64,000 nucleotides of DNA from Candidatus Omnitrophota bacterium (GTDB lineage Bacteria > Omnitrophota > Gorgyraeia > Zapsychrales > JANLHA01). The notes beneath the pieces were generated by a model that saw nothing but the letters and a program-made list of their open reading frames with translations, did not search any database and was not told the origin of the DNA. Location of the stretch: positions 79,411 through 143,410 of the forward strand of contig JAKQKX010000073.1 in assembly GCA_029560465.1 (NCBI GenBank). Direction: 5' to 3'. Shown piece by piece: positions 4,644 through 24,326 of this stretch. How positions within the stretch are numbered: the first letter of the stretch is position 1; the number at the start of each line of letters is the position of its first letter. The position numbers were made by a program, and so were the translations under genes.

Positions 4644-5447
4644 ATGAATTTAGAAAACAAGAAACAAATAGCCATTATTATTTTGGCCGTGGGGCTCGGG
4701 CTTGTGGCTTCTGTAGGAACTGGCCACTATATTCAAACCCGGGTTGACCAGGAAACGGCTAAAATATCTCAAGAATTTGAGAATAAAAAAGTTAAGCCTA
4801 TGATGCGGGAGATTGATTCTTTGCGCAAGGAAATGCAGAAGCTTGCCAGCATGCAGGCGGCCACGGCTACAAAGGTCCAAGAGCAAAAACCCTCGGAATT
4901 ACCAGCCGTTCCCAAGTCATCATTGGCGTTGCGTACTCCTGCGGGGAAGCGGGCTTATACCGTCCGCATCGATTCTTTATCGGCCGTTGGTGGTTTGGTC
5001 AATCCAGGGGATTATATTGATGTGATTGCGCACATGGATATCCCCGACCCGGTTTCTAATTCTAATCAAAATGTGTCTTCCATGGTTTTTCAGAATATTC
5101 AGATATTGGCGGTCGGGACGAACCTTCAGGCGCCGGGCGGGTATGAACAGCAGCAGACCGCAAGGGCGCTTAATATTACGTTTGCGTTAACTCCGGAAGA
5201 AGCCAGTTTGATGTCTTTTATTGAAAAACACGGGAGAATGCAACTTATTCTTCGCGCTCCCGCTGAAACAGAAACGGAAATTATTCAGGCGGCATCCTGG
5301 AGCGCGTTAGCCGATTATGTGTTTGAAAAACAAGGAACGGAGTTAATAATTCCTAAAGAAAGAGCGGTTATTCAGCCTGTTTCTACCGGTCGAGTTGATG
5401 AAGTGAAGCCGTTTATTCAAATCTTTCAGGGAGGCAGAAGCCTTTAA
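4644..5447 (+). CDS. cpaB: Flp pilus assembly protein CpaB/RcpC-like
   Basis: N-terminal TM anchor. Conserved CpaB-like blocks 'AYTVRIDSLSAVGGLVNPGDYIDVIAHM', 'QNIQILAVGTN', 'ITFALTPEEASLMSFIEKHGRMQLILR'. Lies immediately upstream of a secretin. Confidence 0.65.
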   Translation: MNLENKKQIAIIILAVGLGLVASVGTGHYIQTRVDQETAKISQEFENKKVKPMMREIDSLRKEMQKLASMQAATATKVQEQKPSELPAVPKSSLALRTPAGKRAYTVRIDSLSAVGGLVNPGDYIDVIAHMDIPDPVSNSNQNVSSMVFQNIQILAVGTNLQAPGGYEQQQTARALNITFALTPEEASLMSFIEKHGRMQLILRAPAETETEIIQAASWSALADYVFEKQGTELIIPKERAVIQPVSTGRVDEVKPFIQIFQGGRSL

Positions 5448-9821: not shown

Positions 9822-10171
9822 TGCGTATCACTAATCAAACAAAAAACACGCTTATTGCCGACCGAGCCCGGTTAGCCGACACGATTGTGTCGCGCTTGGT
9901 GGGGCTTCTTTCCCGGGCATCGTTGTCTTCCCAGGAAGGGTTGGTGATTACAGAGTGCCGGCAAATCCACATGTTGTTTATGCGATTTGCTATAGATGTC
10001 ATTTTCGTCAACAGGGACAACAAGGTTGTAGGGCTGGTCAGAGATATTAAACCTTTCCGAATGAGCCCGTACTTTTTTCGGGCCCAGAAAGCCATAGAAT
10101 TGCCCGTCGGGGTGATTGATTCCTCTCGAACAGAAAAAGGAGACACCCTTTTCTTGAAGGACGAAGAATAG
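9821..10171 (+). CDS. DUF192-like (COG1430) small protein
   Basis: GTG start overlapping the previous stop. Motif 'IDVIFVNRDNKVVGL ... PVGV' resembles the DUF192 family. Weak call. Confidence 0.45.
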   Translation: MRITNQTKNTLIADRARLADTIVSRLVGLLSRASLSSQEGLVITECRQIHMLFMRFAIDVIFVNRDNKVVGLVRDIKPFRMSPYFFRAQKAIELPVGVIDSSRTEKGDTLFLKDEE

Positions 10172-10191: not shown

Positions 10192-10476
10192 TTAAACCAG
10201 GTCTTCGGGATCAATGTCTTTGGCCGCCTGCTCGATTTCGTCGAGCCATCGTTTACAATGTCGGCAAATTTTTGCTTCCAGTAGTATTTTTTTCCCGCAA
10301 AACAGACAATGCTTTTTATCAAGGCTTGGAAAGTCTGTTCTTATCACGGTATCAATGATGAATTGTAAACAATGTGGACAACGGAGATTTTCTTCTGATG
10401 GGAGGATTTCGTAGCAATAAGGACATTTAATCATGGCTCGGTGCTTTTCTGTGTCGACGTCCTCTTTCAGCGCCAT
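10192..10476 (-). CDS. zinc-ribbon protein (four CxxC pairs), hypothetical
   Basis: 94-aa ORF with CPYC...CPHC...CLFC...CRHC spacing typical of double zinc ribbons. Sits in a gap between + strand genes, divergent from 10730. Confidence 0.45.
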   Translation of the reverse strand: MALKEDVDTEKHRAMIKCPYCYEILPSEENLRCPHCLQFIIDTVIRTDFPSLDKKHCLFCGKKILLEAKICRHCKRWLDEIEQAAKDIDPEDLV

Positions 10477-10729: not shown

Positions 10730-12433
10730 ATGGGTGTCGTATATAAACTTACACAAAGTGTTATTGATTTTATTCTGGCTGAAAAGGCCGCGAGCCCAAC
10801 CTTAAGTTGCCGGAAACTCGCCGAGTTGGTTTATAAAAATTTTTCGATTAGATTATCAAAATCTTCTATAAGTGCGGTTTTAAAAGAAGCGCATTTGAAT
10901 AGCCCTGTTGGACGAAGGACCTTGCCCGGATCTTCATGCCCCCCCCAGTTAACTAGAAAAAAGCCTAAGAAAGTTTTGATCAACAAGATCGCTTTTCAAC
11001 CTTATCCGCAAGAAGTTTTTGATGTAAAAGCTGGGATTTCTGATCTTTCTTCCTTGCCGGATGAAACTAAAAAAGCTTTTCAAGTGGTTCCTGATATTGG
11101 TTATATGTTTATAAAAGCAGCGGAATGGGAGCTCTTCAGGGAATCCTTTTTAGCAGAAATTTTTTCCGAAAGATTTTCGTTTTTTGATAAGATCCAAATT
11201 AATAGTTTGGTTGAAAAATTGCTTTATATGGAAATTTTTGAAAAAAACGACGCTTCTGAAGGTCTATGGAAAGAGGGCCTTTCTCAGAATGATAAGCGTA
11301 TATTCAACGTAGAAGGGCTTTGGTCCGAATTAAGTGGTATGGACAATTGGGCTGAAACCGTGATGAAATTTGTTGTAAATTTGCAGTATTATATGACAAA
11401 AGTGTCTTTTGTTCAGTTGAAGTTGGAAAACGGGAAAAATCTCTTCTTGGATGCGGAGGTAAGTTCAGTTTGGACAAATGATTCAGATTTGCCATTCTTT
11501 AATACGGTAAACCAAAGTACCAAAGCAATTTCTGACGAAATTATTAATAATGTCCAACCTGTAACGTTTTGTTTTTGTCCAATCTTAAACATCAAAGAAA
11601 ATCTTTCTCAAAAAGTATATTGTGCTCAACAATTTTTAGATTTATGTGCGACCTTTGATAATAAGGAAGGAAAACGAATTCTTCAAATTTCCATGTTGGA
11701 TTCCGAGATGAACGAAATAGCCTGTTTTGGTTCGATTCCACCGAAGAAACGGTATTTCATTACCTGTCTTTGGCCTTGGCAACCAGAATTTCATCCTTTA
11801 TTGAGAGCTATTAGAGCAAACAGATTAGAAAAATTTATGGATCCTTTTTTTGAAACCTGTGTGTATTTTTTTGAAACTTTTACCACCCTTCCTGTTGATG
11901 ATGACTTTCAGCCAAGATTAGGATTGAGGGTCTTTCCTTTAAAAGAAAATCGAATGTCAAGCCCCTTTGGGATTATATTAACGAATGCCCCTAATGATTT
12001 GTATCCTGCTAGTAAGATATTAGAGCGATATTGTCGTCGATGGCCAAATTTTCAACGAGGATTTAACTATTCTGTTGGAAAAATTAAGGCGAAGGATTCC
12101 CAATTTTTGTTATTTCAAGGAAATAATTTTAATATAAATAAAAATATTAATATTAAAAAAATTTTCGCCGACTTTTTAGCTCATTACGCTTGGCATACTT
12201 ATTTTTCATCCGGGAAAAAAAGTCTAATTCCTGTGCACCTGAAAGACATTATCCTTCCTTTGTCTGGAACGATCACGGTTCACCCCGAGTCGAGGCAGAT
12301 CCTTTTGATGCCGAGCAGTGATTATGCCTGCCTCGAGGAACTTAACTCTGCTGTGACTCGGATTAATGAAAGAAACATCGTGGATTTTTATGGCAAGCGG
12401 CTGATGATGAAGATCGTTTCTCGTCGACAATAA
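10730..12433 (+). CDS. hypothetical protein with N-terminal HTH-like domain
   Basis: 567-aa ORF. The N-terminal ~60 aa 'LTQSVIDFILAEKAASPTLSCRKLAELVYKNFSIRLSKSSISAVLKEAHL' resembles HTH domains of IS630/resolvase type. The remainder has no motif I recognise. Confidence 0.5.
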   Translation: MGVVYKLTQSVIDFILAEKAASPTLSCRKLAELVYKNFSIRLSKSSISAVLKEAHLNSPVGRRTLPGSSCPPQLTRKKPKKVLINKIAFQPYPQEVFDVKAGISDLSSLPDETKKAFQVVPDIGYMFIKAAEWELFRESFLAEIFSERFSFFDKIQINSLVEKLLYMEIFEKNDASEGLWKEGLSQNDKRIFNVEGLWSELSGMDNWAETVMKFVVNLQYYMTKVSFVQLKLENGKNLFLDAEVSSVWTNDSDLPFFNTVNQSTKAISDEIINNVQPVTFCFCPILNIKENLSQKVYCAQQFLDLCATFDNKEGKRILQISMLDSEMNEIACFGSIPPKKRYFITCLWPWQPEFHPLLRAIRANRLEKFMDPFFETCVYFFETFTTLPVDDDFQPRLGLRVFPLKENRMSSPFGIILTNAPNDLYPASKILERYCRRWPNFQRGFNYSVGKIKAKDSQFLLFQGNNFNINKNINIKKIFADFLAHYAWHTYFSSGKKSLIPVHLKDIILPLSGTITVHPESRQILLMPSSDYACLEELNSAVTRINERNIVDFYGKRLMMKIVSRRQ

Positions 12434-12603
12434 TATATTTTTACCCCAAGATTCAATCCTTGACATTTTGTAATATATTATGATATACTTCATTCAACGT
12501 TGGGAAATAAATGACAGGTCATTATATGACAAATATTTTAAGAACCATAGTTCAGTCTTTGGTGAGATTTTTAAAAGCGTTGGTTGATAAGCCCGCTTTC
12601 TTT

Positions 12604-12645
12604 AACAGGCTTCTTTATATAAATAAAGAAGCCTGTTTTGTTTTA
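12604..12645 (+). terminator. Rho-independent terminator (perfect 14-bp stem, 6-nt loop, T-tract)
   Basis: AACAGGCTTCTTTA-tataaa-TAAAGAAGCCTGTT followed by TTGTTTT. Lies 170 nt downstream of the 10730..12433 stop. Confidence 0.6.
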
Positions 12646-12833
12646 GCTCTTTCATAATTTTAAAAATTGCTTTTTACCCCTTTGTGGGGTTTAATCCGTT
12701 AGATTTGGGTTGTTTTTTGTGGGCCCAAACTAATGGATACCGGAAATATCCGGTAATATAGCCCGTAGTGAATCCACTCTTTGGTTGCAAGAGTTGGGTA
12801 CGAATCATCTGGGGGCACGGAGGTGAGGGCGCG

Positions 12834-12992
12834 ATGGGGCATAATAAGGGTAAGCAAGAAAAAGGACAAAACATAGTTGAATATGCCATCGTCGTGGCCT
12901 TGGTCGCATCAGCCATGCTTGCCATGAGCACCTACGTGTTTAGATCTATTCAGGCAACACAACAGGTGATTTCAGAAGGATTCAGAGATTAA
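12834..12992 (+). CDS. flp: Flp/Fap-type pilin (pilin 1)
   Basis: 52 aa. 'GQNIVEYAIVVALVASAMLAM' is a G/XXXXEY Flp prepilin processing motif plus hydrophobic helix. RBS GGAGGTGA 7 nt upstream of ATG 12834. The ORF track's longer start at 12768 adds non-pilin N-terminal residues. Confidence 0.7.
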   Translation: MGHNKGKQEKGQNIVEYAIVVALVASAMLAMSTYVFRSIQATQQVISEGFRD

Positions 12993-13056
12993 AATGGCGG
13001 AATGGAAAACCGCCTAGCTTTGAGTGGTATGGATCAAACTATAGGAGGAATTACTA

Positions 13057-13263
13057 ATGGTATACAAGAACAGAAAAAAGAAAGGGCAAAGCACCCTCGA
13101 GTATATTATCCTGGTGACAGGTGTTATTGCCATTCTGATTATTTTCTTAAACCCGACTAATGGTATTTTTAACACAGCGTTTAATTCAACCTTGCGTACG
13201 GGTACGAATGGCATGTTTGATATGGCCAATCGGTTACAAACATCTCGTTATGATAATCCGTAA
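13057..13263 (+). CDS. Flp-type pilin (pilin 2)
   Basis: 'KKKGQSTLEYIILVTGVIAILIIF'. RBS AGGAGGA. Confidence 0.7.
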   Translation: MVYKNRKKKGQSTLEYIILVTGVIAILIIFLNPTNGIFNTAFNSTLRTGTNGMFDMANRLQTSRYDNP

Positions 13264-13302
13264 TTAATTATCAAGAGACAAAAGTAAATGGAGGAAACAT
13301 AA

Positions 13303-13677
13303 ATGTTTAGAAAGTTAATTAAGAATAAAAAAGCACAGCAAACAGCCGAATACGCGCTGTTAATTTCTCTTGTTGTCGCGGCGGTCATTGCTATGCAAAC
13401 TTATGCGCAACGAACCATTCAGGCGAGAATTCGTGACGCTTCTGCCTATTTGACAGACTCTACAAGCGCCTTAGGTAGAACCAACCAGTATGAACCTTAT
13501 TATCTGGAATCTGATTACAATGTCCTGCGTGATGACAGGGAAGAAGAATTGCAAGGGCAAAGAGCCGACTCCTCTGGGTTGTTCCAGTTAGACACAACCA
13601 GCAATAGAACTCGCGCAACCGGCGGTTATCAGACATCCAATTATGACACCAATTTTGGTGTAATTAATGGTATCTAA
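13303..13677 (+). CDS. Flp-type pilin with extended C-terminus (pilin 3)
   Basis: 'KKAQQTAEYALLISLVVAAVIAM' (Ala at -1 instead of Gly), then 'QRTIQARIRDA'. RBS GGAGGA. Confidence 0.65.
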   Translation: MFRKLIKNKKAQQTAEYALLISLVVAAVIAMQTYAQRTIQARIRDASAYLTDSTSALGRTNQYEPYYLESDYNVLRDDREEELQGQRADSSGLFQLDTTSNRTRATGGYQTSNYDTNFGVINGI

Positions 13678-13730
13678 GATCCAGATAACTTAGTGTAACG
13701 AAAATCTGAATTTTAAGGGAGGAATTTTCA

Positions 13731-14051
13731 ATGTTTAAGTTTCTAAGAAAAATAAAAGGGCAAAGTACTTTAGAGTACGCCGTCTTGATTATCATCGTCA
13801 TCGGTGCTCTTTTATCTATCCAGGTTTACATCAAAAGAGGTGTTCAGGGTAGATTAAAGAGTGCAACAGATGACATCGGTGATCAATATTCACCGGGCAA
13901 CTCAAACATCCGTCGTGTTGTGACTACAGTTAGCAATACTGCTGAAACGTTCACCTATGGTGTTTCTTCAACAACCTTGAACACGGATGAAGTTACCGAA
14001 ACATTGCAGAACCAGGTTATCATTAACGCCGAACAGGAATTCTGGGGTTAA
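13731..14051 (+). CDS. Flp-type pilin (pilin 4)
   Basis: 'KIKGQSTLEYAVLIIIVIGALLSI' followed by the conserved 'KRGVQGRLK'. RBS AGGGAGGA. Confidence 0.7.
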   Translation: MFKFLRKIKGQSTLEYAVLIIIVIGALLSIQVYIKRGVQGRLKSATDDIGDQYSPGNSNIRRVVTTVSNTAETFTYGVSSTTLNTDEVTETLQNQVIINAEQEFWG

Positions 14052-14173
14052 TTTTAGTTTATTAGATAACCAGAATGTTTTAAGCTAAATAAAGTATGGC
14101 TTACTTGAGGGGGAGAACAACTTTCGGGTAAGCCATACTTTATTTATAATCAGTTTGAACATTAAAATACTCT

Positions 14174-14566
14174 ATGAAACTTAACAAGAAGGGCCAAAAT
14201 TCTTTTGTTGAATATGCCACGACTTTTTTTCTGGTTGTTTCGATTATTTCGGTGATGGGCACGTATGTCCGTCGAGTATTGCAGGGGCGCACAAGAGACG
14301 CCCTGTATTATATGGCCGGCACCGTGCAGGCGGATTATAATTGCGGTGGAGCCGCAGATTGCGCCCTTCCGAATCATGGCTCTTTTTATTTTCAATATGA
14401 GCCGTATTACAGCAATTCAACGACAACGCGATATACGGACACGACCACGACCATGACAGAACAGGGCGCCTTTCCTCTGGGGTCGGGGATCGTAGAGCAG
14501 ATTTTTAATCACCAGATTAGCGCCATAACAAACCAAACGCAGTTGCCACCGGCTTTGGCTGATTAA
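14174..14566 (+). CDS. Flp-type pilin (pilin 5)
   Basis: 'KKGQNSFVEYATTFFLVVSIISV' then 'RRVLQGRTRDA'. Confidence 0.6.
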   Translation: MKLNKKGQNSFVEYATTFFLVVSIISVMGTYVRRVLQGRTRDALYYMAGTVQADYNCGGAADCALPNHGSFYFQYEPYYSNSTTTRYTDTTTTMTEQGAFPLGSGIVEQIFNHQISAITNQTQLPPALAD

Positions 14567-14586
14567 TTAAAAATTTTAATAAGAAT

Positions 14587-14925
14587 ATGAGAAGAAAGTA
14601 TAAGAATTCCGCGCAAACATTTTTAGAGTATGCTATGCTAGTGAGTGTCGTTGTCGCGGTCCTGATTTCTCTTACCCCGTTATTGCGCAGAGGGGTCCAG
14701 GGGATGATTCGGGTTGTTTCCGACCAAGTCGGCAATCAATCCGGCGCGGAGCAGCCCGGCGGGCTCGATGGGCATTTGGTTGAGCAGATAATAGACGTGG
14801 ATCAAGCCTCCGTCAGGCGGCGGAGGGAAGATTTTGGAGAGACGCGGGTGGATTATGACGGCACGGTGTCACAAACAGTTACGACCACAACCACGAATTT
14901 AGGATTTCAGTATAGAGATAACTAA
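14587..14925 (+). CDS. Flp-type pilin (pilin 6)
   Basis: 'NSAQTFLEYAMLVSVVVAVLISL' then 'RRGVQGMIR'. Confidence 0.65.
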   Translation: MRRKYKNSAQTFLEYAMLVSVVVAVLISLTPLLRRGVQGMIRVVSDQVGNQSGAEQPGGLDGHLVEQIIDVDQASVRRRREDFGETRVDYDGTVSQTVTTTTTNLGFQYRDN

Positions 14926-14950
14926 AAGGCTTTAAAATGAGGGTACGGGC

Positions 14951-15259
14951 ATGAAGTTATTACGAGGGCAAAGCACTTTGGAATATGTGACGCTTATTAC
15001 AATTATTTTAGGGGTATTCCTGGGGATGGGGACTTATTTTAAAAGAGGGGTTCAGGGGCGGTGGAAGGAATCCGTTGACGGAATGGGCGACCAATACGAC
15101 CCGCGGGTGACTAATACAGATATTACTGAGCGGGCGAGTGGGTTTTCCTCCACGCGTATTACCACAATCCCGGTTAACGCCGGGGTCTGGACAATGCGGG
15201 ATGACGATTCCAACATGCTTGAAGAAAAGTACGGGGCGTCAAGAGTGGCCGCCTATTAA
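14951..15259 (+). CDS. Flp-type pilin (pilin 7)
   Basis: 'LRGQSTLEYVTLITIILGVFLGM' then 'KRGVQGRWK'. Confidence 0.7.
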   Translation: MKLLRGQSTLEYVTLITIILGVFLGMGTYFKRGVQGRWKESVDGMGDQYDPRVTNTDITERASGFSSTRITTIPVNAGVWTMRDDDSNMLEEKYGASRVAAY

Positions 15260-15279
15260 TGAAACGTAAATTTTAAATT

Positions 15280-16995
15280 ATGAAATGTGACAAAGGAAAG
15301 ATTCGGAACCCTCGATTAGGCCAATCAGGGACGGAGTTGGCTATCTTTGGGGCCATGCTTATTTTTATAATCGGTTCCATTATTAAAGCGGGACTGCAGG
15401 TTAGTATGCTTAACAATATGCAATTACGAGCTTTGCGCCTTGCCTTGAGCGAATCTTACCGGACGTCCGAAGGCGAGTACATTGGTTTTGCTGGGGACGA
15501 AGGCGCGAACTCCCGGAACGTGGCGTCTATTGTTATTTTGGAAGACAGATTGAATGTGGATGCGGGTAAGAAATTCGGGTCTCGGGACAGGTTCCCGATG
15601 ACAGCCAGCGCCAGCGCTTCTATGACAAAAAATTTATTCCGTCCGACAGATTTTGGAGATCGCCGGGACCTGCCGGTGTCGGATATTTATATTAACGGCC
15701 AACGCTTTCCGTTATTAGGGGCGGATTTCAAAACAGTCACCCTTGCCAACGCTGACGGAAGCCGACCTGCCTGGATACCAGCGTGCAATGGCGCGGCACC
15801 GGCATATTTTAATTCCAGCGCCCCGCCCGCGAATCCTCCCTACGGAATGTGCTGGTGGAATAGCTGTGTTACTTATTCGAGTTGTGTTTATGTGGGATAC
15901 GGGGGCAATTATGAATTAGGTTACATGGGGGAATGTGTTATGGCAACAGGAGGGGCCGGCACGGGAGAGTATGATTTGGTGACAAATTCTGCGGGATGTT
16001 CGTTGCTGTTTACTATATCAGGCAATTATCCTAAGAGTAAAACGTGTTGTTTTGGGACCACATGTCAAAAAAATTGTAATAATCTTCCTCAAGACGTCCG
16101 TTTTGATTATGATTTTGACGGCGTATCTGATGTGCCTGCCGGGAGCCGGGACGGACAATTCTGGCAGTGGTTTTTAATCGCCGGGGTAGTTGACGGAACA
16201 GCGTTAACCTTGCCGTGGGGTGGCGTGCCGGGAATTTATGTTGATCCCAGCGGAGAGAAGGAATCGAAGAACGACAGCGTTGATGTTGACGGCGATTATT
16301 ATGAAGAGTCTATCCTTAGTTATTCTGCCTTGAGTTCTGGCGTTCTTCGAACCGTGAACGTGATTGACGGGGAGGAAGGAGATATGACCAGTTCATTCCT
16401 TTCGGATGCCCGTCAAGCCGGGGAATGGCGTTTTGCCGGGACCATCGGAGGCTCTTGTGGAGTTGAGCCGACAGGGAATTGCGTTATCGGATCAACGACG
16501 ACCGGAGAGAATGCTCTGGGGGTGTGTTCGAATTATAAATGCCTTGCTCGTTCAGTTGGTTTTTCTGAGGGCGCGCAGGTTTATACATTTACGGAATCTA
16601 ATCCAGGCCAAGAAACAGGTCAGGGAATGTATCTTCGGACGGAAGAAGGCCCGATTTTTAATGCCAACATGTCGCAATACACCCGGAGCACGGAAAGGCA
16701 TGACCAGCTAGATGTTGTGGAGCGGTTGGTTCAGCTTACCAAGGACACGGGCAGGTTTTGTGCCGACGATGTTAATCCTCGCGTCTGGGGAACTTCGGCG
16801 TGGGCGCGCGATAATGGGCTGTATGGAATTCAGAATCCGGTCGAAGTTTGTACCCGGCCCAGCACGGGAACCAATTGTTATATGGGGGGCGTCGCACAGT
16901 TGACATGTTTTGACAGGGACAACTTGATGTTGTTTGTCAGGAGCCGGATTGCCGATCTTAGAGGGAGGCGTTGGATAAGAAGATACGCCCCGTAA
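15280..16995 (+). CDS. TadE-like pseudopilin with large Cys-rich extracellular domain
   Basis: N-terminus 'GQSGTELAIFGAMLIFIIGSII' matches the TadE-family signature (G/XXXE[LF]A + hydrophobic helix). The 571-aa body has about 25 Cys in clusters (CWWNSCVTYSSCVYVG, CCFGTTCQKNC). Confidence 0.6.
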   Translation: MKCDKGKIRNPRLGQSGTELAIFGAMLIFIIGSIIKAGLQVSMLNNMQLRALRLALSESYRTSEGEYIGFAGDEGANSRNVASIVILEDRLNVDAGKKFGSRDRFPMTASASASMTKNLFRPTDFGDRRDLPVSDIYINGQRFPLLGADFKTVTLANADGSRPAWIPACNGAAPAYFNSSAPPANPPYGMCWWNSCVTYSSCVYVGYGGNYELGYMGECVMATGGAGTGEYDLVTNSAGCSLLFTISGNYPKSKTCCFGTTCQKNCNNLPQDVRFDYDFDGVSDVPAGSRDGQFWQWFLIAGVVDGTALTLPWGGVPGIYVDPSGEKESKNDSVDVDGDYYEESILSYSALSSGVLRTVNVIDGEEGDMTSSFLSDARQAGEWRFAGTIGGSCGVEPTGNCVIGSTTTGENALGVCSNYKCLARSVGFSEGAQVYTFTESNPGQETGQGMYLRTEEGPIFNANMSQYTRSTERHDQLDVVERLVQLTKDTGRFCADDVNPRVWGTSAWARDNGLYGIQNPVEVCTRPSTGTNCYMGGVAQLTCFDRDNLMLFVRSRIADLRGRRWIRRYAP

Positions 16996-17014
16996 GGATT
17001 ATAGGTGAATTGTT

Positions 17015-17314
17015 ATGAAAACACGGAAAAGGAATCAAAGGAAAAAGCTTTATAAATGGCCGGGACAGGTGTCTTTGGAGTTTATGTTTGGGATGATCGG
17101 TGTCGTTTTGCTTGTGGTCGGGATGATTCAGGTTTTTGCCTGGACAGGCAATGACCTGATGAAACGTTTTAACTCTCATGAAGCTCTTTTGGTTTCTCCG
17201 GTTGGCACTTCTCAACCTGCGGCTCCTTTAGAACAGGTCCGGCCGATGTTTTATTCGGTCACAAAAATAAACGCAACGGTTAATAGCAATATTTTTGGAG
17301 AGGAAGCTCCTTAA
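17015..17314 (+). CDS. small TadE-like pseudopilin
   Basis: 'WPGQVSLEFMFGMIGVVLLVVGMIQ' pilin-like N-terminus. 99 aa. Its 3' end overlaps the next ORF start by 20 nt. Confidence 0.45.
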   Translation: MKTRKRNQRKKLYKWPGQVSLEFMFGMIGVVLLVVGMIQVFAWTGNDLMKRFNSHEALLVSPVGTSQPAAPLEQVRPMFYSVTKINATVNSNIFGEEAP

Positions 17315-20300
17315 TTCTAAATTTATTACCCCGGGGGTCAAGTTGTTGCATGTTTTTTACAAAGGCGTAAGGCGAGTCCGAAGATGGCAACATAAAAAGC
17401 GGAATGCTTTTTTCTTTGTTCCCAACAACAGCGGTGATTCCACAAGAATGCCGCCTCGGCATGTTGCCGGGCAAGTCGGGCTGATCCTGATTCTGGCCGC
17501 GGCCATAGGGCTGATTTTATATGCGGTCACGATTAATATCGGCAGGATTTCTCAAGGCAAAACCTTGACTATTATTGCCGCCAACACGGCGGCATCCAAG
17601 ATGGCGTCGTTTATCGCCAGTTATGGCCAAATGCTTTTTATGACGTCTTTGGGGGGAGAAACAAAAATTTGTGCCTGGACCGGATTTTTAGTAAAGCTCA
17701 TTGCGGCCATTATTGTTGTGGTCATTGTTGTTATTTGCGCCGCTACCGAACAATGTGAGGGATGGGGGTTAGCCGCTGCGATTGTCGCGGCGGTTCTTGT
17801 TGTGGCTGCCGCGGTTATTGATGTCACAATAACCCAGCCGGGCATTACGTCCATGTGGAACAAAATGATGAAGGACTCGATGGGGCCGAAAGAAATGGCC
17901 GTGGAACTGGGGGTGCAAACCGCCTTGATGACAGCGGTGAATGACCCTGCCCAAATTCCGGATTTATTCGACTTTGACACTGACGGTTCTTTTGGCAATT
18001 TAGCGGACCCTCTTAATAAAACCACGGCCCCGGATTATATTTCCCGCTTTGCGTATTATTATACCCGCCGCCTTCAAGGTATTCCTGATTTGAATCTTAC
18101 GATCATTGATGACTTCTTGTCTGCGTTGACGGATTTCTTGTTTGGAGGCGATCCCAATCGCTGTACGGTTTGGGGGTGCGACACGGATGATTGGGGCCTT
18201 ATTGATCCCCTAGATTGCCTGTTAACTCCCGGGCACCCCTGTTGCCCGGCCAATCCCGTTGGGAACATGCGTTTCCCGGCCATGTGTGACCCCTGTTGCG
18301 TCATTAACGATCCAGACCTTCGGCCAGCGTGCTGTGCTACGGGAACTTGCGTGGAGGACGAGGGGTTTGCCGGCGGGGATCCAAACACATGTGATGAGAG
18401 AAGCCCTTACCACACCCCGCTTCCTCCCGCAGCGCCAAACGCAAGCTTGACGTACCCGTATATTTTTAGAGGCATAAATGAAAACTCCACGAACAATAAA
18501 AACAGTTCAGGCGCTTGGGTTCCGGCCAATATTTCTTTTCGTGAATGGCTCGGCTTTGACGACGAGCATCATCAATACGCCGTTAATCCGGCCCGGCCTA
18601 ATTGGCATTATTTAATTGACGGAACCGGGGCGAATTTAGACCACTCGCAGTTGATCCGTTCCGCTCCGTTGGAGTATGATTTTTATATGGAAGACGCAAC
18701 CGGTTATTATTTGAATGACGAGAGGCCGGGGATTTTTCCGTTTTTCTATAAACTGGCGGACTGGGGTATGGATTTACAGGCTTTGACCTATGGCGCCCTG
18801 ACGCCGGATCCGCCTGATCCTCATCCGGTCCGGGATAACCTTGAGTGCCATTTATGCGATGTAGACGGGATTGCCGCGGGCACGGTCCCTGCGGTTTGCG
18901 CCGGAATGACGTATCCTTCTGAAATTGGTGTTGCGCTTGAACTTCCCGAAACTCCGGATACAGCGCTTTATAGCGGCGGCTGGTGTGTGGATGCTGCGAA
19001 TACCGGAGCCGACGGCGACCCACCCCAGTTGTTGGACGTGGTCCCCAATATTGTTGATCTTTTAGCCGATGATGCTGTCTGCGCTCAGGATGTGGGCGGC
19101 TGGAAAAGAGGGGCTGATCAATTCTGTGATCCGCCTGACCAGTGGCCTTATATGGCCGAATGCATAAAAGCCGGTGGTCCTTCCGGCGGGGGGGGGCCAC
19201 CTTGCGTGGAGGTCGATCCCGTAAGTGGGACTTCTTGGCCGGTTGATTGTGCTTGCGGAACCGGCGGGGCTTTGCCTCCGACGCCTCCCGTAGACCGGAC
19301 GTTGGCCGCGAACAACTTTCAATATGTGACCACCAACTGGCCTGATGATAAATTAGATGATTTTATCTATGGATTGCCGGAATTCTATGAATGGGCGACA
19401 ACCCTTTTTGGCAAAGATAAGGATACTTTAGAAGACACTTTCGATGATTGGTATGAGGAAGCCGCTACTTGGATTGAAGCGCCGTGCCCGAGCGGTAATG
19501 CTGCGGATTGTGCGGGAAGTTGTACCGGAGACGTGGATGGCGGATACTGGTATGTCTGGCGCGATGATTTGGGCTCTTTCTATACTCCAATTGTAAATTG
19601 GCTGAACCCACCCGATGCGGATCTTTATGTTGGTTCCGGGTGTTTTACGAACAGCTCCGCAGACCCGGCGGTTTGGTGTGTTCCTCCGCCTCAAGCGGCC
19701 GCTAATAAATATGCGGACCCCACATATCTGGGTTTTCAGTCAGGATATAACGGGTTGGAATGCCCTGGAGTAAGCCAGGAGGAACAGGCGTCTTTTGACA
19801 TTAGCGCAGATGGCCGAGGCGACATTGAAGATGTTATTGCGTGTTTTAATTGGAACCTTTTTGATCCGGCTGAAGATCCGTCCGGGGCCCCAATTATTCA
19901 CCCTGTAACCGGGGCGCAGGCTGTAGGAAATTTTGAAAAATTTGAGGCGTGTAAGTGGGATTGCGACAATAATCCGGTTAATTCCATAAACAGCTGTCCG
20001 ATCTTGCCCAGGTCGCTGGTGCCGGGGTTTGATGCTTTAATATTTACGGTTCCAATGCCCGAAGCAGATTTGATCGCGTTAACATTGTGTTTAGGAACAG
20101 AATCGATTCCAACCTGTAATGATGATTGTTCGTCGTTGCCTGGCGGATATGGCATCCCCGCTTTTGTTCCAACGTCCGATAACGCGGCCCTTCCGGCGCC
20201 AGACACGTCTTTGTTGACCAATTTAAGGGCCCTGTATGCTTTTTGCGAGGCGAATCCAGCTTCAAGTCTTCCAAACCAGTGCCGGGACCAGGGGACAACG

Positions 20301-21341
20301 ATTGCTTGTGCCAGCCCCACCATTTTGTCAGACGCCTTAAACTGTTCCTGCACGTGGTACGGGTTACCGACGGATCTTTTGGGAACCTGTGGACAGCTTT
20401 GCGGTATTGGGGCGACCCCGTTTTTTGATGCCATTGAAACAGCCCTTGATGATAATATAGGCTCGTGCGGAGAAACTGATCCTGGAGAATGGAAAGATTT
20501 GTTAGACCAGAGCGTTTTAGCCGCGGGGAATCAGGCGATGAAAATGTCAAAACGCTTGAATTTGTTGGAGGGACGAGAGGAAGAGGCGATTTCGATAAGG
20601 AATGTGTTGTATAATGCGCTTCTTCATATCGACGCCTTTCTCACGGGCCCGGCCCAGGGGCTTATTGATGCTTGTAAGGCATGGGGGAATATTTATCCTC
20701 CGGCCACCACCTCTTTCGCCATTTATGCCTGGCAGGATCTCCCCAAAGATGTTTATAACACGATTCGGGGGGATTGGCATGTTGTTAAAGTGGAAGTTCG
20801 AACTCCGGGGCGGTGTAACGCCGCGTGTGGAACGGATCGATGGCCGTATATTGACACATACACCAAAAGCTGGGGGATGAAACGCTGTTATGAATTAAAG
20901 GAATGGACAGGCAGGGTCAAAGCCCGGGTGATCCGTTATGACGAGGATACTGTCGGCAGCCGGATACTTTTCCCGGATGGAACTCTATTATGGAAACCAC
21001 AATACTATCATCCGGAAGGGTCAGATCAGGATCCTACGGATTTGGAGCTGACCTGCGCTATTATGATTGATCCCAATATCGCCGCCCAGACATGGGAATG
21101 GGGGTGGAGGAGCGCTTTTATGGTTAATCAGACGCCGACAGCCAGCGCCACGCCACCTAGGGGGTCGCCCGAGTATTTGGATTGCTGGAATTTTCTGCAT
21201 GAAAGTTTGTTAAGATATGGTTATTCAACGGCGACGTGCGCTCAATATTTTCTAGGAGGCGGATCGGGGTACAGTGGAGACCAGGGGTTTCGTGTCCGTT
21301 TTGTGGAGTGTGATAACGCCTTTATTAGTGGAAATAATTAG
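17295..21341 (+). CDS. TadG-like large Cys-rich membrane-anchored protein (putative pilus-associated adhesin/tip protein)
   Basis: 1348-aa ORF. After an in-frame Met at 17448, 'GQVGLILILAAAIGLILYAVTINIGRISQGKTLTIIAANTAASKMA' resembles the TadG N-terminal domain (TM helix followed by D/N.GR...LQ..ADAAALA). Two further very hydrophobic helices follow. The ~1100-aa extracellular region has many Cys clusters (CCPANPVGNMRFPAMCDPCCV, CCATGTC). The true start may be 17448 rather than 17295. Confidence 0.55.
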   Translation: MERKLLNSKFITPGVKLLHVFYKGVRRVRRWQHKKRNAFFFVPNNSGDSTRMPPRHVAGQVGLILILAAAIGLILYAVTINIGRISQGKTLTIIAANTAASKMASFIASYGQMLFMTSLGGETKICAWTGFLVKLIAAIIVVVIVVICAATEQCEGWGLAAAIVAAVLVVAAAVIDVTITQPGITSMWNKMMKDSMGPKEMAVELGVQTALMTAVNDPAQIPDLFDFDTDGSFGNLADPLNKTTAPDYISRFAYYYTRRLQGIPDLNLTIIDDFLSALTDFLFGGDPNRCTVWGCDTDDWGLIDPLDCLLTPGHPCCPANPVGNMRFPAMCDPCCVINDPDLRPACCATGTCVEDEGFAGGDPNTCDERSPYHTPLPPAAPNASLTYPYIFRGINENSTNNKNSSGAWVPANISFREWLGFDDEHHQYAVNPARPNWHYLIDGTGANLDHSQLIRSAPLEYDFYMEDATGYYLNDERPGIFPFFYKLADWGMDLQALTYGALTPDPPDPHPVRDNLECHLCDVDGIAAGTVPAVCAGMTYPSEIGVALELPETPDTALYSGGWCVDAANTGADGDPPQLLDVVPNIVDLLADDAVCAQDVGGWKRGADQFCDPPDQWPYMAECIKAGGPSGGGGPPCVEVDPVSGTSWPVDCACGTGGALPPTPPVDRTLAANNFQYVTTNWPDDKLDDFIYGLPEFYEWATTLFGKDKDTLEDTFDDWYEEAATWIEAPCPSGNAADCAGSCTGDVDGGYWYVWRDDLGSFYTPIVNWLNPPDADLYVGSGCFTNSSADPAVWCVPPPQAAANKYADPTYLGFQSGYNGLECPGVSQEEQASFDISADGRGDIEDVIACFNWNLFDPAEDPSGAPIIHPVTGAQAVGNFEKFEACKWDCDNNPVNSINSCPILPRSLVPGFDALIFTVPMPEADLIALTLCLGTESIPTCNDDCSSLPGGYGIPAFVPTSDNAALPAPDTSLLTNLRALYAFCEANPASSLPNQCRDQGTTIACASPTILSDALNCSCTWYGLPTDLLGTCGQLCGIGATPFFDAIETALDDNIGSCGETDPGEWKDLLDQSVLAAGNQAMKMSKRLNLLEGREEEAISIRNVLYNALLHIDAFLTGPAQGLIDACKAWGNIYPPATTSFAIYAWQDLPKDVYNTIRGDWHVVKVEVRTPGRCNAACGTDRWPYIDTYTKSWGMKRCYELKEWTGRVKARVIRYDEDTVGSRILFPDGTLLWKPQYYHPEGSDQDPTDLELTCAIMIDPNIAAQTWEWGWRSAFMVNQTPTASATPPRGSPEYLDCWNFLHESLLRYGYSTATCAQYFLGGGSGYSGDQGFRVRFVECDNAFISGNN

Positions 21342-21362
21342 AAAAGTATTTAAGGACGAAAT

Positions 21363-21806
21363 ATGTTTCGGCAAAGGAGAAGTGCTCAATCTATATTGGA
21401 GTATATGACCTTGATTGTTTTTTTATTATCAAGCTTGTTTGTCTTTCAAGGTTATATTTTAAGGGGTTATTATGGAAGCTGGAAAAAGGCGGGGGATGCT
21501 TTTGGCTCAGGGCGTCAGTATGACCCCAGGCCTTTTGGGAATTATGGAGATGGCGGCGGGACTTTAGAATGTTTTTTTGATGCCACCCACTGTACGTCAG
21601 GGACCGGCCCGGCCCGGCCGTGTACGTTAATTAACAGATGGATTTCAAAGGCCTGTTATGATGCGACACCCTGTGATTGCACGATGCCAATCGGAACGAC
21701 GGGGTATATCACACAGTGTTTGCAGTGTTTAGAAAATTGTAGCGAGTCTGTAGCTGCGGGAGCGCTTTGTGGGGACGTGACGACATCGAGGGTTTTAATT
21801 GATTAA
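21363..21806 (+). CDS. Flp-like pilin with Cys-rich C-terminal domain (pilin 8)
   Basis: 'RRSAQSILEYMTLIVFLLSSLFV' Flp-type N-terminus. The 100-aa tail has 12 Cys (CTSGTGPARPCTLINRWISKACYDATPCDCTM...CLQCLENC). Confidence 0.55.
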   Translation: MFRQRRSAQSILEYMTLIVFLLSSLFVFQGYILRGYYGSWKKAGDAFGSGRQYDPRPFGNYGDGGGTLECFFDATHCTSGTGPARPCTLINRWISKACYDATPCDCTMPIGTTGYITQCLQCLENCSESVAAGALCGDVTTSRVLID

Positions 21807-21841: not shown

Positions 21842-22696
21842 ATGTATGTTTCTCTATTTTGTATATTTATATCTGCGACAATGTTTGGGTATTTTGTCAT
21901 TCCGTTAATTTATAATAAATCCGTAGAAGTTGGCCAAAAACGGGCGCATAAACTTTCTTCAAAACTGGACAGGGTTTTGCCCCGCTCCAAGGTTGAAAAG
22001 ATAACCCGCTTTTATATCATTGCTCCGATTGTTTTTGGAGGGGCTTGCTATATGTTTTTCCCGGAAGACCTGCGGCTTTTCGGTATAGGAATCGGACTGG
22101 TTTTCGGTTTAATTTTTCCAGGAGTTTATAACAACCTCCTTATAGGGCAAAACAGGAGGAAATTTGATGACCAGTTAATAGATGCGCTTATGATTATGTC
22201 AAGCTCCTTCCGAGGGGGGTTGAGTTTGGTTCAGGCCATGGAAGCCGTTGTGGAAGAGATGCCGGATCCGATAAACCAGGAATTTTCGATTGTTTTGGGG
22301 GAGAACAATATGGGGGTTTCTCTGGATGAAGCCCTTAATCATCTTTATAATAGGCAGCCTTCTCCGGCCGTGCAGCAAATGACAACGGCTATTTTGCTGG
22401 CAAGAGAAACAGGGGGGAATTTGCCCAGTATTTTTCAGCGGATTGTGAATGTTATTCGTGAACAAAAAAGAATAAAATCTCAGATAGACACTTTGACAGT
22501 TCAAGGAAAAATTCAAGGTGTTGTTATGTCGGCCTTGCCTATTATGTTTTTTACGATTATTTACGGAACGAATCCGACTTTCTTTGATCATATGTTTAAG
22601 TCCACGGTAGGGAGGGGCATGCTTGTTTATGCGGTTTTTTCGGAAATTTTAGGCGCCATTATGATTTGGAAGATTAGTAGTTTTAAAGATTTTTAA
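21842..22696 (+). CDS. tadB: TadB-like inner-membrane platform protein (T2SS-F domain)
   Basis: T2SSF-domain pattern 'LIDALMIMSSSFRGGLSLVQAMEAV...EFSIVLGENNMGVSLDEAL...TAILLARETGGNLPSIF'. Flanked by TM helices. Confidence 0.7.
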   Translation: MYVSLFCIFISATMFGYFVIPLIYNKSVEVGQKRAHKLSSKLDRVLPRSKVEKITRFYIIAPIVFGGACYMFFPEDLRLFGIGIGLVFGLIFPGVYNNLLIGQNRRKFDDQLIDALMIMSSSFRGGLSLVQAMEAVVEEMPDPINQEFSIVLGENNMGVSLDEALNHLYNRQPSPAVQQMTTAILLARETGGNLPSIFQRIVNVIREQKRIKSQIDTLTVQGKIQGVVMSALPIMFFTIIYGTNPTFFDHMFKSTVGRGMLVYAVFSEILGAIMIWKISSFKDF

Positions 22697-22734: not shown

Positions 22735-23625
22735 ATGTTAATGCTGACATTTGTTTTGACGATGTGTTTTTTGGCGGGATTTAGTTTTGTTGTTGGGCTT
22801 TTTCCGATGGAAATGGAGAGCCGGCCTACGTTAAAAGCTTTTGGATATGAGGTGGCCCCGGCAAAGAAGAAAAAGAATGCGACGTCCATGTTGCGTGCTT
22901 TAGCCATGTTTAATAAACCATTGTGTTCAGGGGGCCTTCGGAAGAGAATTTCAAAAGATTTATCTGTGGGGCATGTTAACTTGACGCCGGAAGAATTTTT
23001 CTTAATGAAGGAAATCGGTATTATTTTGGTGCTTTTGTTGACTTTTCAGATGATTCAGCCAGACATGATTCTTTTTTGGCTTTTTATGAGTCTTTCTATT
23101 GGTTATATGATGCCGGAATTTTGGCTTAAGGGAAAAATTAAAAAAGTCAAAGCTGTTATTGTGAAGGAATTGCCGAATGCCATTGATTTGCTTGGCCTTT
23201 GTGTGAATGCTGGGTTGGACTTTATGTTGGCTTTGAAGTGGGTTGTTGAGAAATCAACACCATCGGTCATGATTAACGAGCTTAATATCCTTTTGCAGGA
23301 AATCAACGTTGGAAAGACCCGCCGTGACGCATTAAAAGATTTGGCGGTAAAATTTGACCTTCCGGAAGTTTCTTCCTTTTCAAGGACGCTTCTCCAGGCA
23401 GATAAAATGGGGACCTCTGTTTCCGAAGCCCTGAATCTTTTGTCTGAAGACATGCGCCTTGCCCGATTCCGCAGAGGGGAACAAATGGCCATGAAAGCGC
23501 CTATGAAGCTGTTGGTGCCCCTGTTGTTCTTTATTTTCCCTGTTGTCGGAATTCTTGTCGCCGGCCCAATATTTCTGCAGTTTATTGAGGAGAATCCGTT
23601 GTCAGAATTGGGTGGGAAAAAATAA
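22735..23625 (+). CDS. tadC: TadC-like inner-membrane platform protein (T2SS-F domain)
   Basis: 'LPNAIDLLGLCVNAGLDFMLALKWVVEK...ELNILLQEINVGKTRRDALKDLAVKFDLPEVSSFSRTLLQADKMGTSVSEAL' T2SSF pattern. RBS AGGAAGAGG. N- and C-terminal TM helices. Confidence 0.7.
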   Translation: MLMLTFVLTMCFLAGFSFVVGLFPMEMESRPTLKAFGYEVAPAKKKKNATSMLRALAMFNKPLCSGGLRKRISKDLSVGHVNLTPEEFFLMKEIGIILVLLLTFQMIQPDMILFWLFMSLSIGYMMPEFWLKGKIKKVKAVIVKELPNAIDLLGLCVNAGLDFMLALKWVVEKSTPSVMINELNILLQEINVGKTRRDALKDLAVKFDLPEVSSFSRTLLQADKMGTSVSEALNLLSEDMRLARFRRGEQMAMKAPMKLLVPLLFFIFPVVGILVAGPIFLQFIEENPLSELGGKK

Positions 23626-23971
23626 CCCCTGTTTGGAAAATGAGAAGCAATCCCGTTTTTGATCAATTATCAAAAAGTGTCTTATAAAAACGGTGTTTTT
23701 GTGAAATTTCTAGAAAACCTTGAGTTGTCCATTCTGATTTGTCCATTCTGAGAAAATTGTGTTTTTAATAATTAAATAAATATAAAAATTAAGCAATATT
23801 CTAAAATTATTTTTCAAGCGAATAGAAATTTTTAAGATGTTTTTAAACCATTAAGTTTTTTTTGGAAGCGTTTTCTTGTTTTTTCTCCTGATTCTCAAAA
23901 GACAATTTCAAAAAATATTTCTTTTGGGCTGTAACTATCTGAAAATAAACAACATTTTCTTTAAAAAAAAA

Positions 23972-24000
23972 TTGCATATTCATTGTTGCCCCTCTATAAT
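23972..24000 (+). promoter_or_regulatory. sigma70-type promoter: TTGCAT -17 bp- TATAAT
   Basis: -35 TTGCAT at 23972-23977, exact 17-bp spacer, perfect -10 TATAAT at 23995-24000, preceded by an A8 tract (UP-like). It is 327 nt upstream of the giant ORF start. Confidence 0.5.
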
Positions 24001-24009
24001 AATGCTATA

Positions 24010-24162
24010 CTTATAGGGCAAGTGGTAAAGGGTTGCCTTATAAGAATATCCTGAAAGAGGGCCAACAAAATAATGAGATGCACATCATTTATTAAGCTCT
24101 TCAGAGTATTTGAGTAAACTACTGGGCTACCAAGAGACCACTTGGTAGCTTTTTGTTTTTAA
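24010..24162 (+). ncRNA. structured leader / candidate small RNA: 5' 12-bp hairpin plus 3' terminator-like hairpin with T-tract
   Basis: Hairpin 1 is CTTATAGGGCAA-(11 nt)-TTGCCTTATAAG at 24010-24044 (one G-U). Hairpin 2 is GCTACCAAG-agacca-CTTGGTAGC immediately followed by TTTTTGTTTTT (~24127-24162). Both lie between the predicted promoter and the giant gene ATG. Confidence 0.4.
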
Positions 24163-24326
24163 AAAATGGCAAAAATTATAAAAATTATAGGAGGAGCAGA
24201 AAAAAAACTAAATAGTTTTTTGTTGAATTCTTTCAGCTTGTTTCAAAAAATTCCTTCCACTTGTATTCGAGGGCACCAGTTAGCCCATTGTTTCGTTAAT
24301 AATCTGGTTAATTTCTAGAAAAATAT

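Follow-up and report, generated by a model that had tools for sequence, protein, structure and literature searches.

Eleven pilin-like genes in fixed order and two tiers inside a Tad-type pilus locus of Omnitrophota

We found that a group of small pilin genes in a Candidatus Omnitrophota bacterium belongs to an ancient, fixed set of eleven pilin subunits that is encoded inside a Tad-type pilus locus. The analysed DNA, hereafter the window, is a stretch of 64,000 nucleotides (nt) of contig JAKQKX010000073.1 (GenBank assembly GCA_029560465.1, positions 79,411 to 143,410 of the forward strand). A reading made from the sequence alone had noticed eight of these genes (F1 to F8), all taken for Flp-type pilins, and had interpreted them as a gene-family expansion serving the antigenic or functional variation of a surface filament. 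Our data show that the eight genes are not a recent or variable expansion: the eleven prepilin-type proteins keep their identity and order, are under purifying selection and fall into two tiers (Table 1). On balance, they probably constitute the complete ancient pilin complement of an Omnitrophota Tad-like (type IVc-like) machine, which would include both filament subunits and a minor-pilin or tip complex.

All eight plus-strand open reading frames (ORFs) F1 to F8 are present, and alignment of their N-termini, a check that had been proposed with the sequence-only reading, revealed a common basic leader rich in K and R, followed by G or A, the motif Q-x-x-x-E-Y and about 20 hydrophobic residues. 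The Flp-like processing site and hydrophobic helix that had been assigned to all eight proteins hold for F1–F4 and F6–F8 as (G/A)↓QxxxEY, where the arrow marks the predicted processing site. In F5, however, the Glu stands one residue later, at +6, both in the window and across the F5 family, whereas the other Glu-bearing families carry it at +5. A strict regular expression for this N-terminus, applied to all ORFs of at least 40 amino acids (aa) in the six frames of the window, matched nine ORFs, namely F1–F8 and the gene of a Cys-rich 571-aa protein, and none elsewhere.

The set comprises eleven members rather than eight, because the genes of this 571-aa protein, of a 99-aa protein and of a protein of about 1300 aa have the same kind of N-terminus. 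The 571-aa protein keeps the N-terminal motif in 59 of its 61 orthologs. For the ~1300-aa gene, the start codon is uncertain (TTG 17295, TTG 17343 or ATG 17448); the N-terminus listed in Table 1 applies if ATG 17448 is used, and 54 Cys were counted in the longest ORF. Per-position conservation within the ortholog families (45–94 sequences per family) showed that Q at +1 and E at +5 are conserved to about 100% in most of them. Q+1 amounts to 46% in the F8 family and to 85% in the ~1300-aa family, in which G reaches 92% and I or V takes the place of Glu at +5; it is almost invariant in the other families. Given the shift of the Glu in F5 and its loss in the ~1300-aa protein, each of these two families may have a special place in the filament.

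A second motif, Y-x-(K/R)-R-G-x-Q-G-R or Y-x-x-R-x-x-Q-x-x, is found in F1 and F3–F8 and is conserved within each ortholog family. The shared motif of the '(K/R)RGVQG' type that had been read from the window is therefore real in these proteins, but F2 does not have it, and its placement behind the helix did not hold. The AlphaFold2 model of F4 (predicted local distance difference test score, pLDDT, 68) contains a helix at residues 13–52, followed by a four-strand meander or sheet. Because the model helix covers these residues, we assume with moderate confidence that the shared KRGVQGRLK motif would form the second half of helix alpha-1. Together, these sequence features support the view that F1–F8 carry predicted class III (prepilin-type) signal peptides and belong to a Tad-type pilus locus.

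The array proteins are homologous to one another by hhalign, and the paralogy proposed for them was thus confirmed. The closest pairs are F3 and F5 (E = 3e-38 over 113 columns), F4 and F7 (E = 4e-37), and F7 and F8 (E = 1.4e-25), with F8 also being related to F4; the remaining pairs align mainly over the N-terminal 30–55 columns, and the alignments of F3 with F7 and of F5 with F6 and F7 reach further. The designation of all eight as Flp-type pilins applies to one family. Judged by its profile matches, F1 is the only true Flp (PF04964, Flp_Fap) of the set: 21 of 25 F1 orthologs match Flp_Fap at E <= 0.01, and most database orthologs have a precomputed PF04964 hit and carry NCBI or Joint Genome Institute (JGI) names such as 'Flp family type IVb pilin' or 'Flp pilus assembly pilin Flp'. 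The F1 protein of the window itself falls short of the gathering threshold (25.1 against 32.2 bits). F2 instead matches the class III signal model PF04021 (Class_IIIsignal; 31.2 bits, above the cut-off of 23.7), as do 24 of 25 F2 orthologs; Flp_Fap is matched by 5 of 25. Matches of F3 and the 99-aa protein to Class_IIIsignal are weak (E = 0.04–0.05), and one of 25 F4 family members matches this model.

Most other array proteins have no counterpart among known families. Neither the prepilins F3–F8 of the window (102–147 aa) nor the F4 family matched Flp_Fap; F3 and F5–F8 of the window gave no or sub-threshold Pfam hits, and the F4 family gave no Pfam hit at the family level. No array pilin hit Pfam N_methyl, and the motif G↓F-T-L-x-E is absent, the residue at +1 being Q and not F. 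For the ~1300-aa protein, no Pfam or NCBIfam family was found. NCBIfam scans of all pilin-like proteins returned weak hits only, which we judged to be spurious. The AlphaFold2 model of the 571-aa protein (pLDDT 60, low confidence) consists of a helix at residues 11–63 and an all-beta region behind it. Foldseek searches with the F4 and 571-aa models against the PDB retrieved nothing at E <= 0.001, and the top hits, levivirus coats and MCM, were discarded as noise from low-confidence models. Searching PDB sequences with a profile of the F4 family likewise gave no hit at E <= 10.

The identity and order of the eleven genes are conserved far beyond the window. With the F4 family as bait, we fetched 80 loci from species-representative genomes (85 loci overall, from about 70 distinct species) and assigned each plus-strand ORF of the fetched loci to its best window protein. 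In essentially all of the ~70 species-level loci that were long enough, the order is F1-F2-F3-F4-F5-F6-F7-571-99-1348-F8-TadB-TadC, with 1348 denoting the ~1300-aa gene, and each array member has a 1:1 ortholog in this order; in some loci the gene in the F5 position scores best against the paralog F3. Each family has its own consensus, which is conserved along the whole length, and residues 10–57 of F4 are nearly invariant. The ratio of non-synonymous to synonymous divergence (dN/dS) in comparison with two divergent relatives, the loci L006 and L007, was 0.014–0.28 wherever synonymous divergence (dS) could be estimated. Values were noisier, up to 0.57, in comparison with the near-identical contig L001.

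The array is organized in two tiers, F1–F4 on the one side and F5–F7, the 571-aa, 99-aa and ~1300-aa proteins and F8 on the other. In tier 1, the median identity to the window (24–75 loci per gene) is 63% for F4, 62.5% for F1, 58.5% for F2 and 56% for F3; the corresponding values for the machine proteins are 67% for the ATPase, 66% for TadC and 58% for TadB. Tier 2 evolves fast, with 46% for F7, 38% for F6, 37% for the 99-aa protein, 36% for F8 and 34% for F5, and with 30.5% and 30% for the large, Cys-rich ~1300-aa and 571-aa proteins. F8 has 10 Cys, and not the 12 that had been attributed to one of the small paralogs. Tier 2 is also tightly packed: spacers of 39–64 nt separate F1–F4, and those from F5 onward measure 19–25 nt (F5–F6, 20 nt), with an undefined value at the uncertain start of the ~1300-aa gene.

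Signals of translation initiation follow the same division. A strong Shine-Dalgarno sequence (GGAGG, 7–12 nt upstream) precedes F1–F4 only, the 99-aa gene has AGGTGA, and the sites of F7 and F8 are weak. F5, F6 and the 571-aa gene have none, and the earlier statement that every gene has its own Shine-Dalgarno sequence was accordingly wrong. Synonymous divergence from L006 is low in tier 1 (F1 0.27, F2 0.05, F3 0.28, F4 0.37), as compared with about 0.7–1.3 in most neighbours. The ATPase gene had a higher dS than F1 in nine of ten additional species pairs and in the two comparisons with the window; in most species pairs dS of F1 was the lowest of the locus, and F2–F4 were mostly low, too, the values of these genes being several-fold below those of their neighbours. 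We take these low values to reflect selection at the synonymous sites of genes with high expression.

Tier 1 is moreover bracketed by non-coding elements: a conserved promoter-like site and a structured leader lie upstream, and a conserved long stem-loop lies downstream. The window, L006 and L007 share the promoter-like site without any change. It is followed by a leader of about 340 nt (site and leader together 12460–12833, plus strand), which contains two terminator-like hairpins and then a core composed of AAUAGA, the helix P2 (GCCC..GGGC), a GAAUUC loop, the P3 hairpin, AAGGAUCAUCUG and the Shine-Dalgarno sequence. Per-sequence folding and an anchored helix search recovered P2 in 41 of 42 species, with covarying sequence, while RNAalifold on MAFFT alignments of the leader yielded 0 pairs, because hairpins of unequal length were misaligned. 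Apart from a tRNA, an Rfam search of positions 1–26000 at E <= 1 yielded four weak matches below threshold, none of them relevant to the leader. The leader of F1 may represent an undescribed cis-regulatory RNA. In the F4–F5 spacer, the minimum free energy is -40.8 kcal/mol in the window, and across 46 species this spacer has a median length of 160 nt, as compared with 20–60 nt for most other array spacers, and a median minimum free energy of -50 kcal/mol. Its stem-loop may act as an intra-operon attenuator or mRNA stabiliser that separates pilin genes of high and low expression.

The array is embedded in genes for CpaB/RcpC, an RcpA-type secretin, TadZ, a TadA-type ATPase and both TadB and TadC, whose order is kept in related loci. 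This machine is of the Tad type, because CpaB scores above the equivalog cut-off and the ATPase matches the TadA family best (317 bits, below that model's cut-off of 373), far above GspE and PilB (39–54 bits). The TadA, VirB11 and FlaI models all outscore GspE (44–54 bits) by far on this ATPase. TadZ and TadA are separate proteins in classical Tad systems; here, they are fused into one protein of 720 aa, and nearly all related loci have this fusion at a length of about 720 aa.

We propose that tier 1 would supply the abundant filament subunits of this machine, with F1, as the sole true Flp, being the most likely major pilin and F2–F4 serving as abundant co-subunits or adapters. Tier 2 would provide low-copy minor pilins, which could prime assembly and form a disulfide-stabilised tip, and the Glu-less ~1300-aa protein might be the outermost cap or adhesin, by analogy with the Kil pilus of Myxococcus xanthus and with GspK. 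An A24 prepilin peptidase encoded elsewhere would cleave the prepilins after the G or A, and the TadZ-TadA ATPase on the TadB/TadC platform would then polymerise the pilins through CpaB and the secretin. The resulting pilus probably mediates contact with prey or host cells, a task in which the giant protein encoded next to it would also take part.

Several observations weigh against this proposal. A TadV/CpaA-type peptidase gene linked to the locus was not found: a motif search, not a profile search, for the A24 signature G-x-G-D-[VAFILM]-K detected no ORF anywhere in the 64-kb window, nor any in the 85 loci up to 10 kb from F4. In the accessible part of the KEGG Orthology (KO) table of Seymour et al. 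(PMC10066038), moreover, one genome with the KOs for CpaB, CpaC and CpaF lacks K02278 (TadV), and the entries for PilD (K02654) all belong to other Omnitrophota genomes. The 571-aa, 99-aa and ~1300-aa proteins matched neither TadE nor Tad (PF07811, PF13400) in Pfam or NCBIfam scans even at E <= 1, and they resemble TadE/F/G solely in having a pilin-like N-terminus, in their size classes and in where their genes lie within the locus. The structure models of F4 and the 571-aa protein are of moderate and low confidence only and found no significant fold match. F4, equally conserved and likewise preceded by a strong Shine-Dalgarno sequence, rivals F1 as a candidate for the major pilin. Finally, the dS evidence comes from short genes and from species pairs that are partly non-independent, and the low dS could instead result from RNA-structure constraint or recombination.

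The most serious alternative is a pseudopilus as in type II secretion systems (T2SS), although we consider it unlikely. Here, the eleven proteins would form a short periplasmic piston of one major pseudopilin and a minor tip, which pushes the giant protein or lytic enzymes through the secretin. The array resembles the pseudopilins GspG-K in number and size range, and in its row of a presumably abundant and several presumably low-copy subunits, the largest of which has no Glu at +5; GspK of type II secretion also lacks Glu5. The locus has a secretin and is directly followed by a gene that exceeds 13,000 codons, an adjacency that is reported as general in the accessible text of West-Roberts 2023 (bioRxiv 10.1101/2023.11.21.568195), where the locus is termed 'type II secretion system-like'. 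However, the core proteins are those of Tad and not of Gsp systems, as indicated by CpaB, by the ATPase (TadA 317 versus GspE 44–54 bits) and by the split into TadB and TadC, and GspC, L and M are missing. By its profile, F1 is a genuine Flp, and the array pilins show neither the pseudopilin motif G↓F(T/S)LxE nor any match to Pfam N_methyl. The giant protein, in turn, has its own N-terminal transmembrane (TM) segment, and about 700 nt of intergenic DNA (23626–24326) separate its gene from TadC, so that it presumably has its own promoter. A folded protein of more than 1.4 MDa would also be hard to pass through a secretin.

It is conceivable, but in its entirety rather improbable, that the locus encodes a distinct class of Tad-derived filament. 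Such a class would unite a heteropolymeric F1–F4 filament, a seven-protein Cys-rich tip, a non-TadV peptidase acting at Q+1, control by the leader RNA and coupling to the giant protein. F1–F4, which are equally conserved, would then be co-abundant, with one Flp-like subunit, one with an archaeal class III signal peptide and two with beta domains, and the machine would be functionally coupled to the display or delivery of the giant protein.

A gene-family expansion that yields alternative or variable major pilins, as envisaged by the sequence-only reading, appears very improbable. The members are indeed true paralogs with divergent C-terminal parts, those of tier 2 diverge fast between species, and a few lineages carry additional copies. 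Four loci (L010, L027, L044 and L081) carry the F2-F3-F4 triplet twice, duplicated as a unit and, in L010, with F1 behind the second triplet; this suggests that F2, F3 and F4 act together. An extra F2-like gene lies between F4 and F5 in one clade (L014, L019, L024, L026, L032, L034, L038, L039, L058 and L073). Such variation is, however, difficult to reconcile with 1:1 orthology in fixed order across ~70 species, with family-specific consensus sequences conserved over the full length and with estimable dN/dS values that are all far below 1. F1–F4 are identical in near-identical contigs of different samples; L001 shows zero substitutions in them, and the sequences near-identical to the window comprise one contig of an NCBI Omnitrophota metagenome-assembled genome (MAG) and two JGI metagenome contigs. 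A repeat search of the array revealed no long repeats, invertible elements or silent cassettes. Direct repeats are short (14–37 nt) and diverged (62–87% identical), and the repeat families with several copies overlap the N-terminal coding stretches that the genes share by homology, so that nothing in the array resembles a cassette or switch.

We give almost no credence to the last alternative, in which unrelated small secreted or membrane proteins carry ordinary Sec signal peptides: each protein does have a basic N-terminal region and then a hydrophobic stretch, but cleavage by signal peptidase I is very unlikely, because the conserved G/A-Q site precedes this stretch, the invariant Glu lies 5 residues inside it and the stretch is the best conserved part, continuing as a single 40-residue helix in the F4 model, and both the Pfam Flp_Fap and Class_IIIsignal matches and the embedding of the genes in a Tad locus argue against it.

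The proposed Tad-like pilus can be set beside several known systems. With the Tad/Flp pili of Aggregatibacter, Caulobacter (Cpa) and Pseudomonas it shares the CpaB/RcpC protein, the RcpA-type secretin, TadZ, the TadA-type ATPase and the split TadB/TadC platform, as well as a short helix-only Flp with G↓xxxxEY (F1) and further pilin-like proteins downstream. It differs from them in its eleven pilin-like genes, where classical systems have one to three Flp and TadE/F/G, in the fused TadZ-TadA, in the TonB_C domain of the secretin and in the invariant Q at +1. Furthermore, no tadV, tadD or rcpB was found in the locus, F3–F8 are long (100–150 aa), F4 has a predicted beta domain, and the proposed TadE/F/G analogues match neither Pfam TadE nor Tad.

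The closest analogue that has been worked out in detail is the Tad-like predation pilus Kil of M. xanthus (PMC12075869). It has the major Flp KilP, the helix-only Flp-like adapters KilK and KilO, and three-protein, disulfide-rich Tip complexes of a TadE/F/G-like kind, which include a very large pilin without PDB homolog. Its linked peptidase KilA is dispensable for the major pilin, for which PilD is suspected, prepilin peptidases being promiscuous (PMC12075869). In both cases, a bacterium whose way of life presumably depends on touching other cells encodes a Tad-like machine, with an Flp major-pilin candidate and a large Cys-rich pilin that has no PDB match; this is a likeness of architecture and of roles, the latter being putative here. 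Unlike the Kil tips, which are encoded in four interchangeable clusters, the tip genes proposed here form one fixed single-copy cluster, and no short peptidase like KilA is linked to it.

The Q at +1 recalls the archaeal QxSxExxxL class of pilins more than a typical Flp. These class III signal peptide, EppA-dependent (Epd) pilins (PF04021) resemble the array in the N-terminus K/R-G↓Q-x-(S/T)-x-E-x-x-x-L with invariant Q+1; F2 scores above the gathering threshold of their model, and JGI names some orthologs UPF0333. In contrast to the archaeal systems, the array belongs to a bacterial machine that includes CpaB and a secretin of the outer membrane, the ATPase most resembles TadA of bacteria, and no EppA-like peptidase was identified at the locus.

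Omnitrophota are widespread, uncultivated and ultra-small bacteria, which are suspected to be predators or parasites, and genomic hints at the way in which they attack other cells come mainly from the Tad-like locus with the adjoining giant genes. As far as the accessible parts of the two sources go, the locus (coarsely) and its small class III signal peptide genes have already been published: West-Roberts 2023 describes a T2SS-like locus with such genes that precedes giant genes, and Seymour 2023 (PMC10066038) reports a complete Tad complex of V. archaeovorus that is expressed in co-culture and whose locus we matched by size. Relative to these accessible parts, the eleven ortholog families with their fixed order and two tiers, the recognition of the large Cys-rich proteins as pilin-like and the candidate regulatory RNA elements are new. 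The text of a 2025 limonene-enrichment paper contains no pilin data.

What had been 'many small class III signal peptide genes' thus becomes a fixed eleven-subunit set with a putative filament tier and a putative tip tier, and the idea of antigenic variation is corrected for this array. The set offers concrete candidates: F1, possibly with F2–F4, for the major pilin; the fast-evolving Cys-rich 571-aa and ~1300-aa proteins with F5–F8 for a prey-contacting tip; and the conserved leader and the F4–F5 stem-loop for regulation of the array. Current family databases fail to recognise most of the array pilins, and some have been annotated erroneously as RodZ. The F4 family, with 1476 database homologs, every named one of which comes from Omnitrophota, and with 3314 cluster representatives at E <= 1e-3 among 1.84 billion proteins for its profile, is a large protein family without a Pfam model.

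Table 1. Features of the pilin-like array and its surroundings (positions in the window; ↓, predicted processing site)
Feature	Position	Strand	Description
CpaB/RcpC periplasmic pilus-assembly protein	4644-5447	+	Pfam RcpC 6.9e-23; NCBIfam pilus_cpaB 86.4 bits (equivalog cut-off 71)
Secretin (RcpA/CpaC-like)	5536-7479	+	Pfam Secretin 1e-42, T2SS-T3SS_pil_N, C-terminal TonB_C
Fused TadZ-like (ParA/MinD) and TadA/CpaF-like ATPase	7659-9821	+	AAA_31/CbiA/ParA residues 4-240, T2SSE residues 364-643
DUF192 protein	9821-10171	+	Pfam DUF192 4.3e-16; position conserved, 61 related loci, median identity 54.5%
Small double zinc-ribbon protein	10192-10476	-	Position conserved between ATPase and pilins
567-aa protein	10730-12433	+	No Pfam family; weak N-terminal HTH_32, E = 0.097
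Promoter-like site of the pilin array	12460-12489	+	TTGACA-18-TATACT, extended TG, 11/12 matches
Structured 5' leader core before F1	12728-12833	+	AAUAGA, P2/P3 helices, AAGGAUCAUCUG, then Shine-Dalgarno sequence
F1	12834-12992	+	Flp-family pilin by profile, 52 aa (~41 aa mature in the window)
F2	13057-13263	+	68-aa pilin, archaeal-type class III signal peptide, without R-x-x-Q motif
F3	13303-13677	+	124-aa pilin-like protein, A↓QQTAEY N-terminus, full-length paralog of F5
F4	13731-14051	+	106-aa pilin-like protein; most conserved of the array together with F1
Long stem-loop in F4-F5 spacer	14081-14150	+	19-nt perfect inverted repeat 14086-14104 / 14128-14146; stem ~30 bp
F5	14174-14566	+	130-aa minor-pilin-like protein, E at +6
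F6	14587-14925	+	112-aa minor-pilin-like protein
F7	14951-15259	+	102-aa minor-pilin-like protein, paralog of F4
571-aa Cys-rich pilin-like protein	15280-16995	+	G↓QSGTEL, 19 Cys; proposed tip-complex subunit
99-aa pilin-like protein (E99)	17015-17314	+	G↓QVSLEF; proposed tip-complex subunit
~1300-aa Cys-rich pilin-like protein	17448-21341	+	G↓QVGLIL, no Glu at +5; proposed capping/adhesin subunit
F8	21363-21806	+	147-aa pilin-like protein, 10-Cys C-terminal domain; related to F4 and F7
TadB-like platform protein	21842-22696	+	Pfam T2SSF 4.8e-18
TadC-like platform protein	22735-23625	+	Pfam T2SSF 1.4e-13
Giant gene, >13,200 codons, runs off window end	24327-64000	+	Stop-free frame 24312-63998, ATG 24327

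Among the neighbouring genes, that of the 567-aa protein has orthologs in the same position in 66 loci at a median identity of 25%, which marks a fast-evolving sequence. A Rotamase_2 peptidyl-prolyl isomerase is also encoded upstream of the array. The N-terminus of the giant protein contains one hydrophobic (TM) segment and a Peptidase_C39-like match at residues 216–297 (E = 8e-10). C39 peptidases cut after Gly-Gly leaders, and this domain was rejected as the pilin-processing enzyme, since no Gly-Gly leader is present in the pilins. The DUF192 and 567-aa proteins were likewise rejected as hidden peptidases, as neither looks like a polytopic membrane protein by inspection.

The TonB_C domain of the secretin covers residues 560–635, and precomputed Pfam calls give the same domain in the related locus L004/L005. 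Several F4 orthologs bear the JGI labels 'cytoskeletal protein RodZ' or 'UPF0333 family', which are likely mis-annotations. The records of many MAGs with an Omnitrophota-type locus bear the title 'uncultured Planctomycetales', and that of one 'Saccharibacteria', which is likely a mis-classification. A tRNA gene (Rfam, 64.8 bits) at 1202–1275 on the plus strand, between a C-terminal gyrase A fragment and a carbon-nitrogen hydrolase gene, is unrelated to the array.

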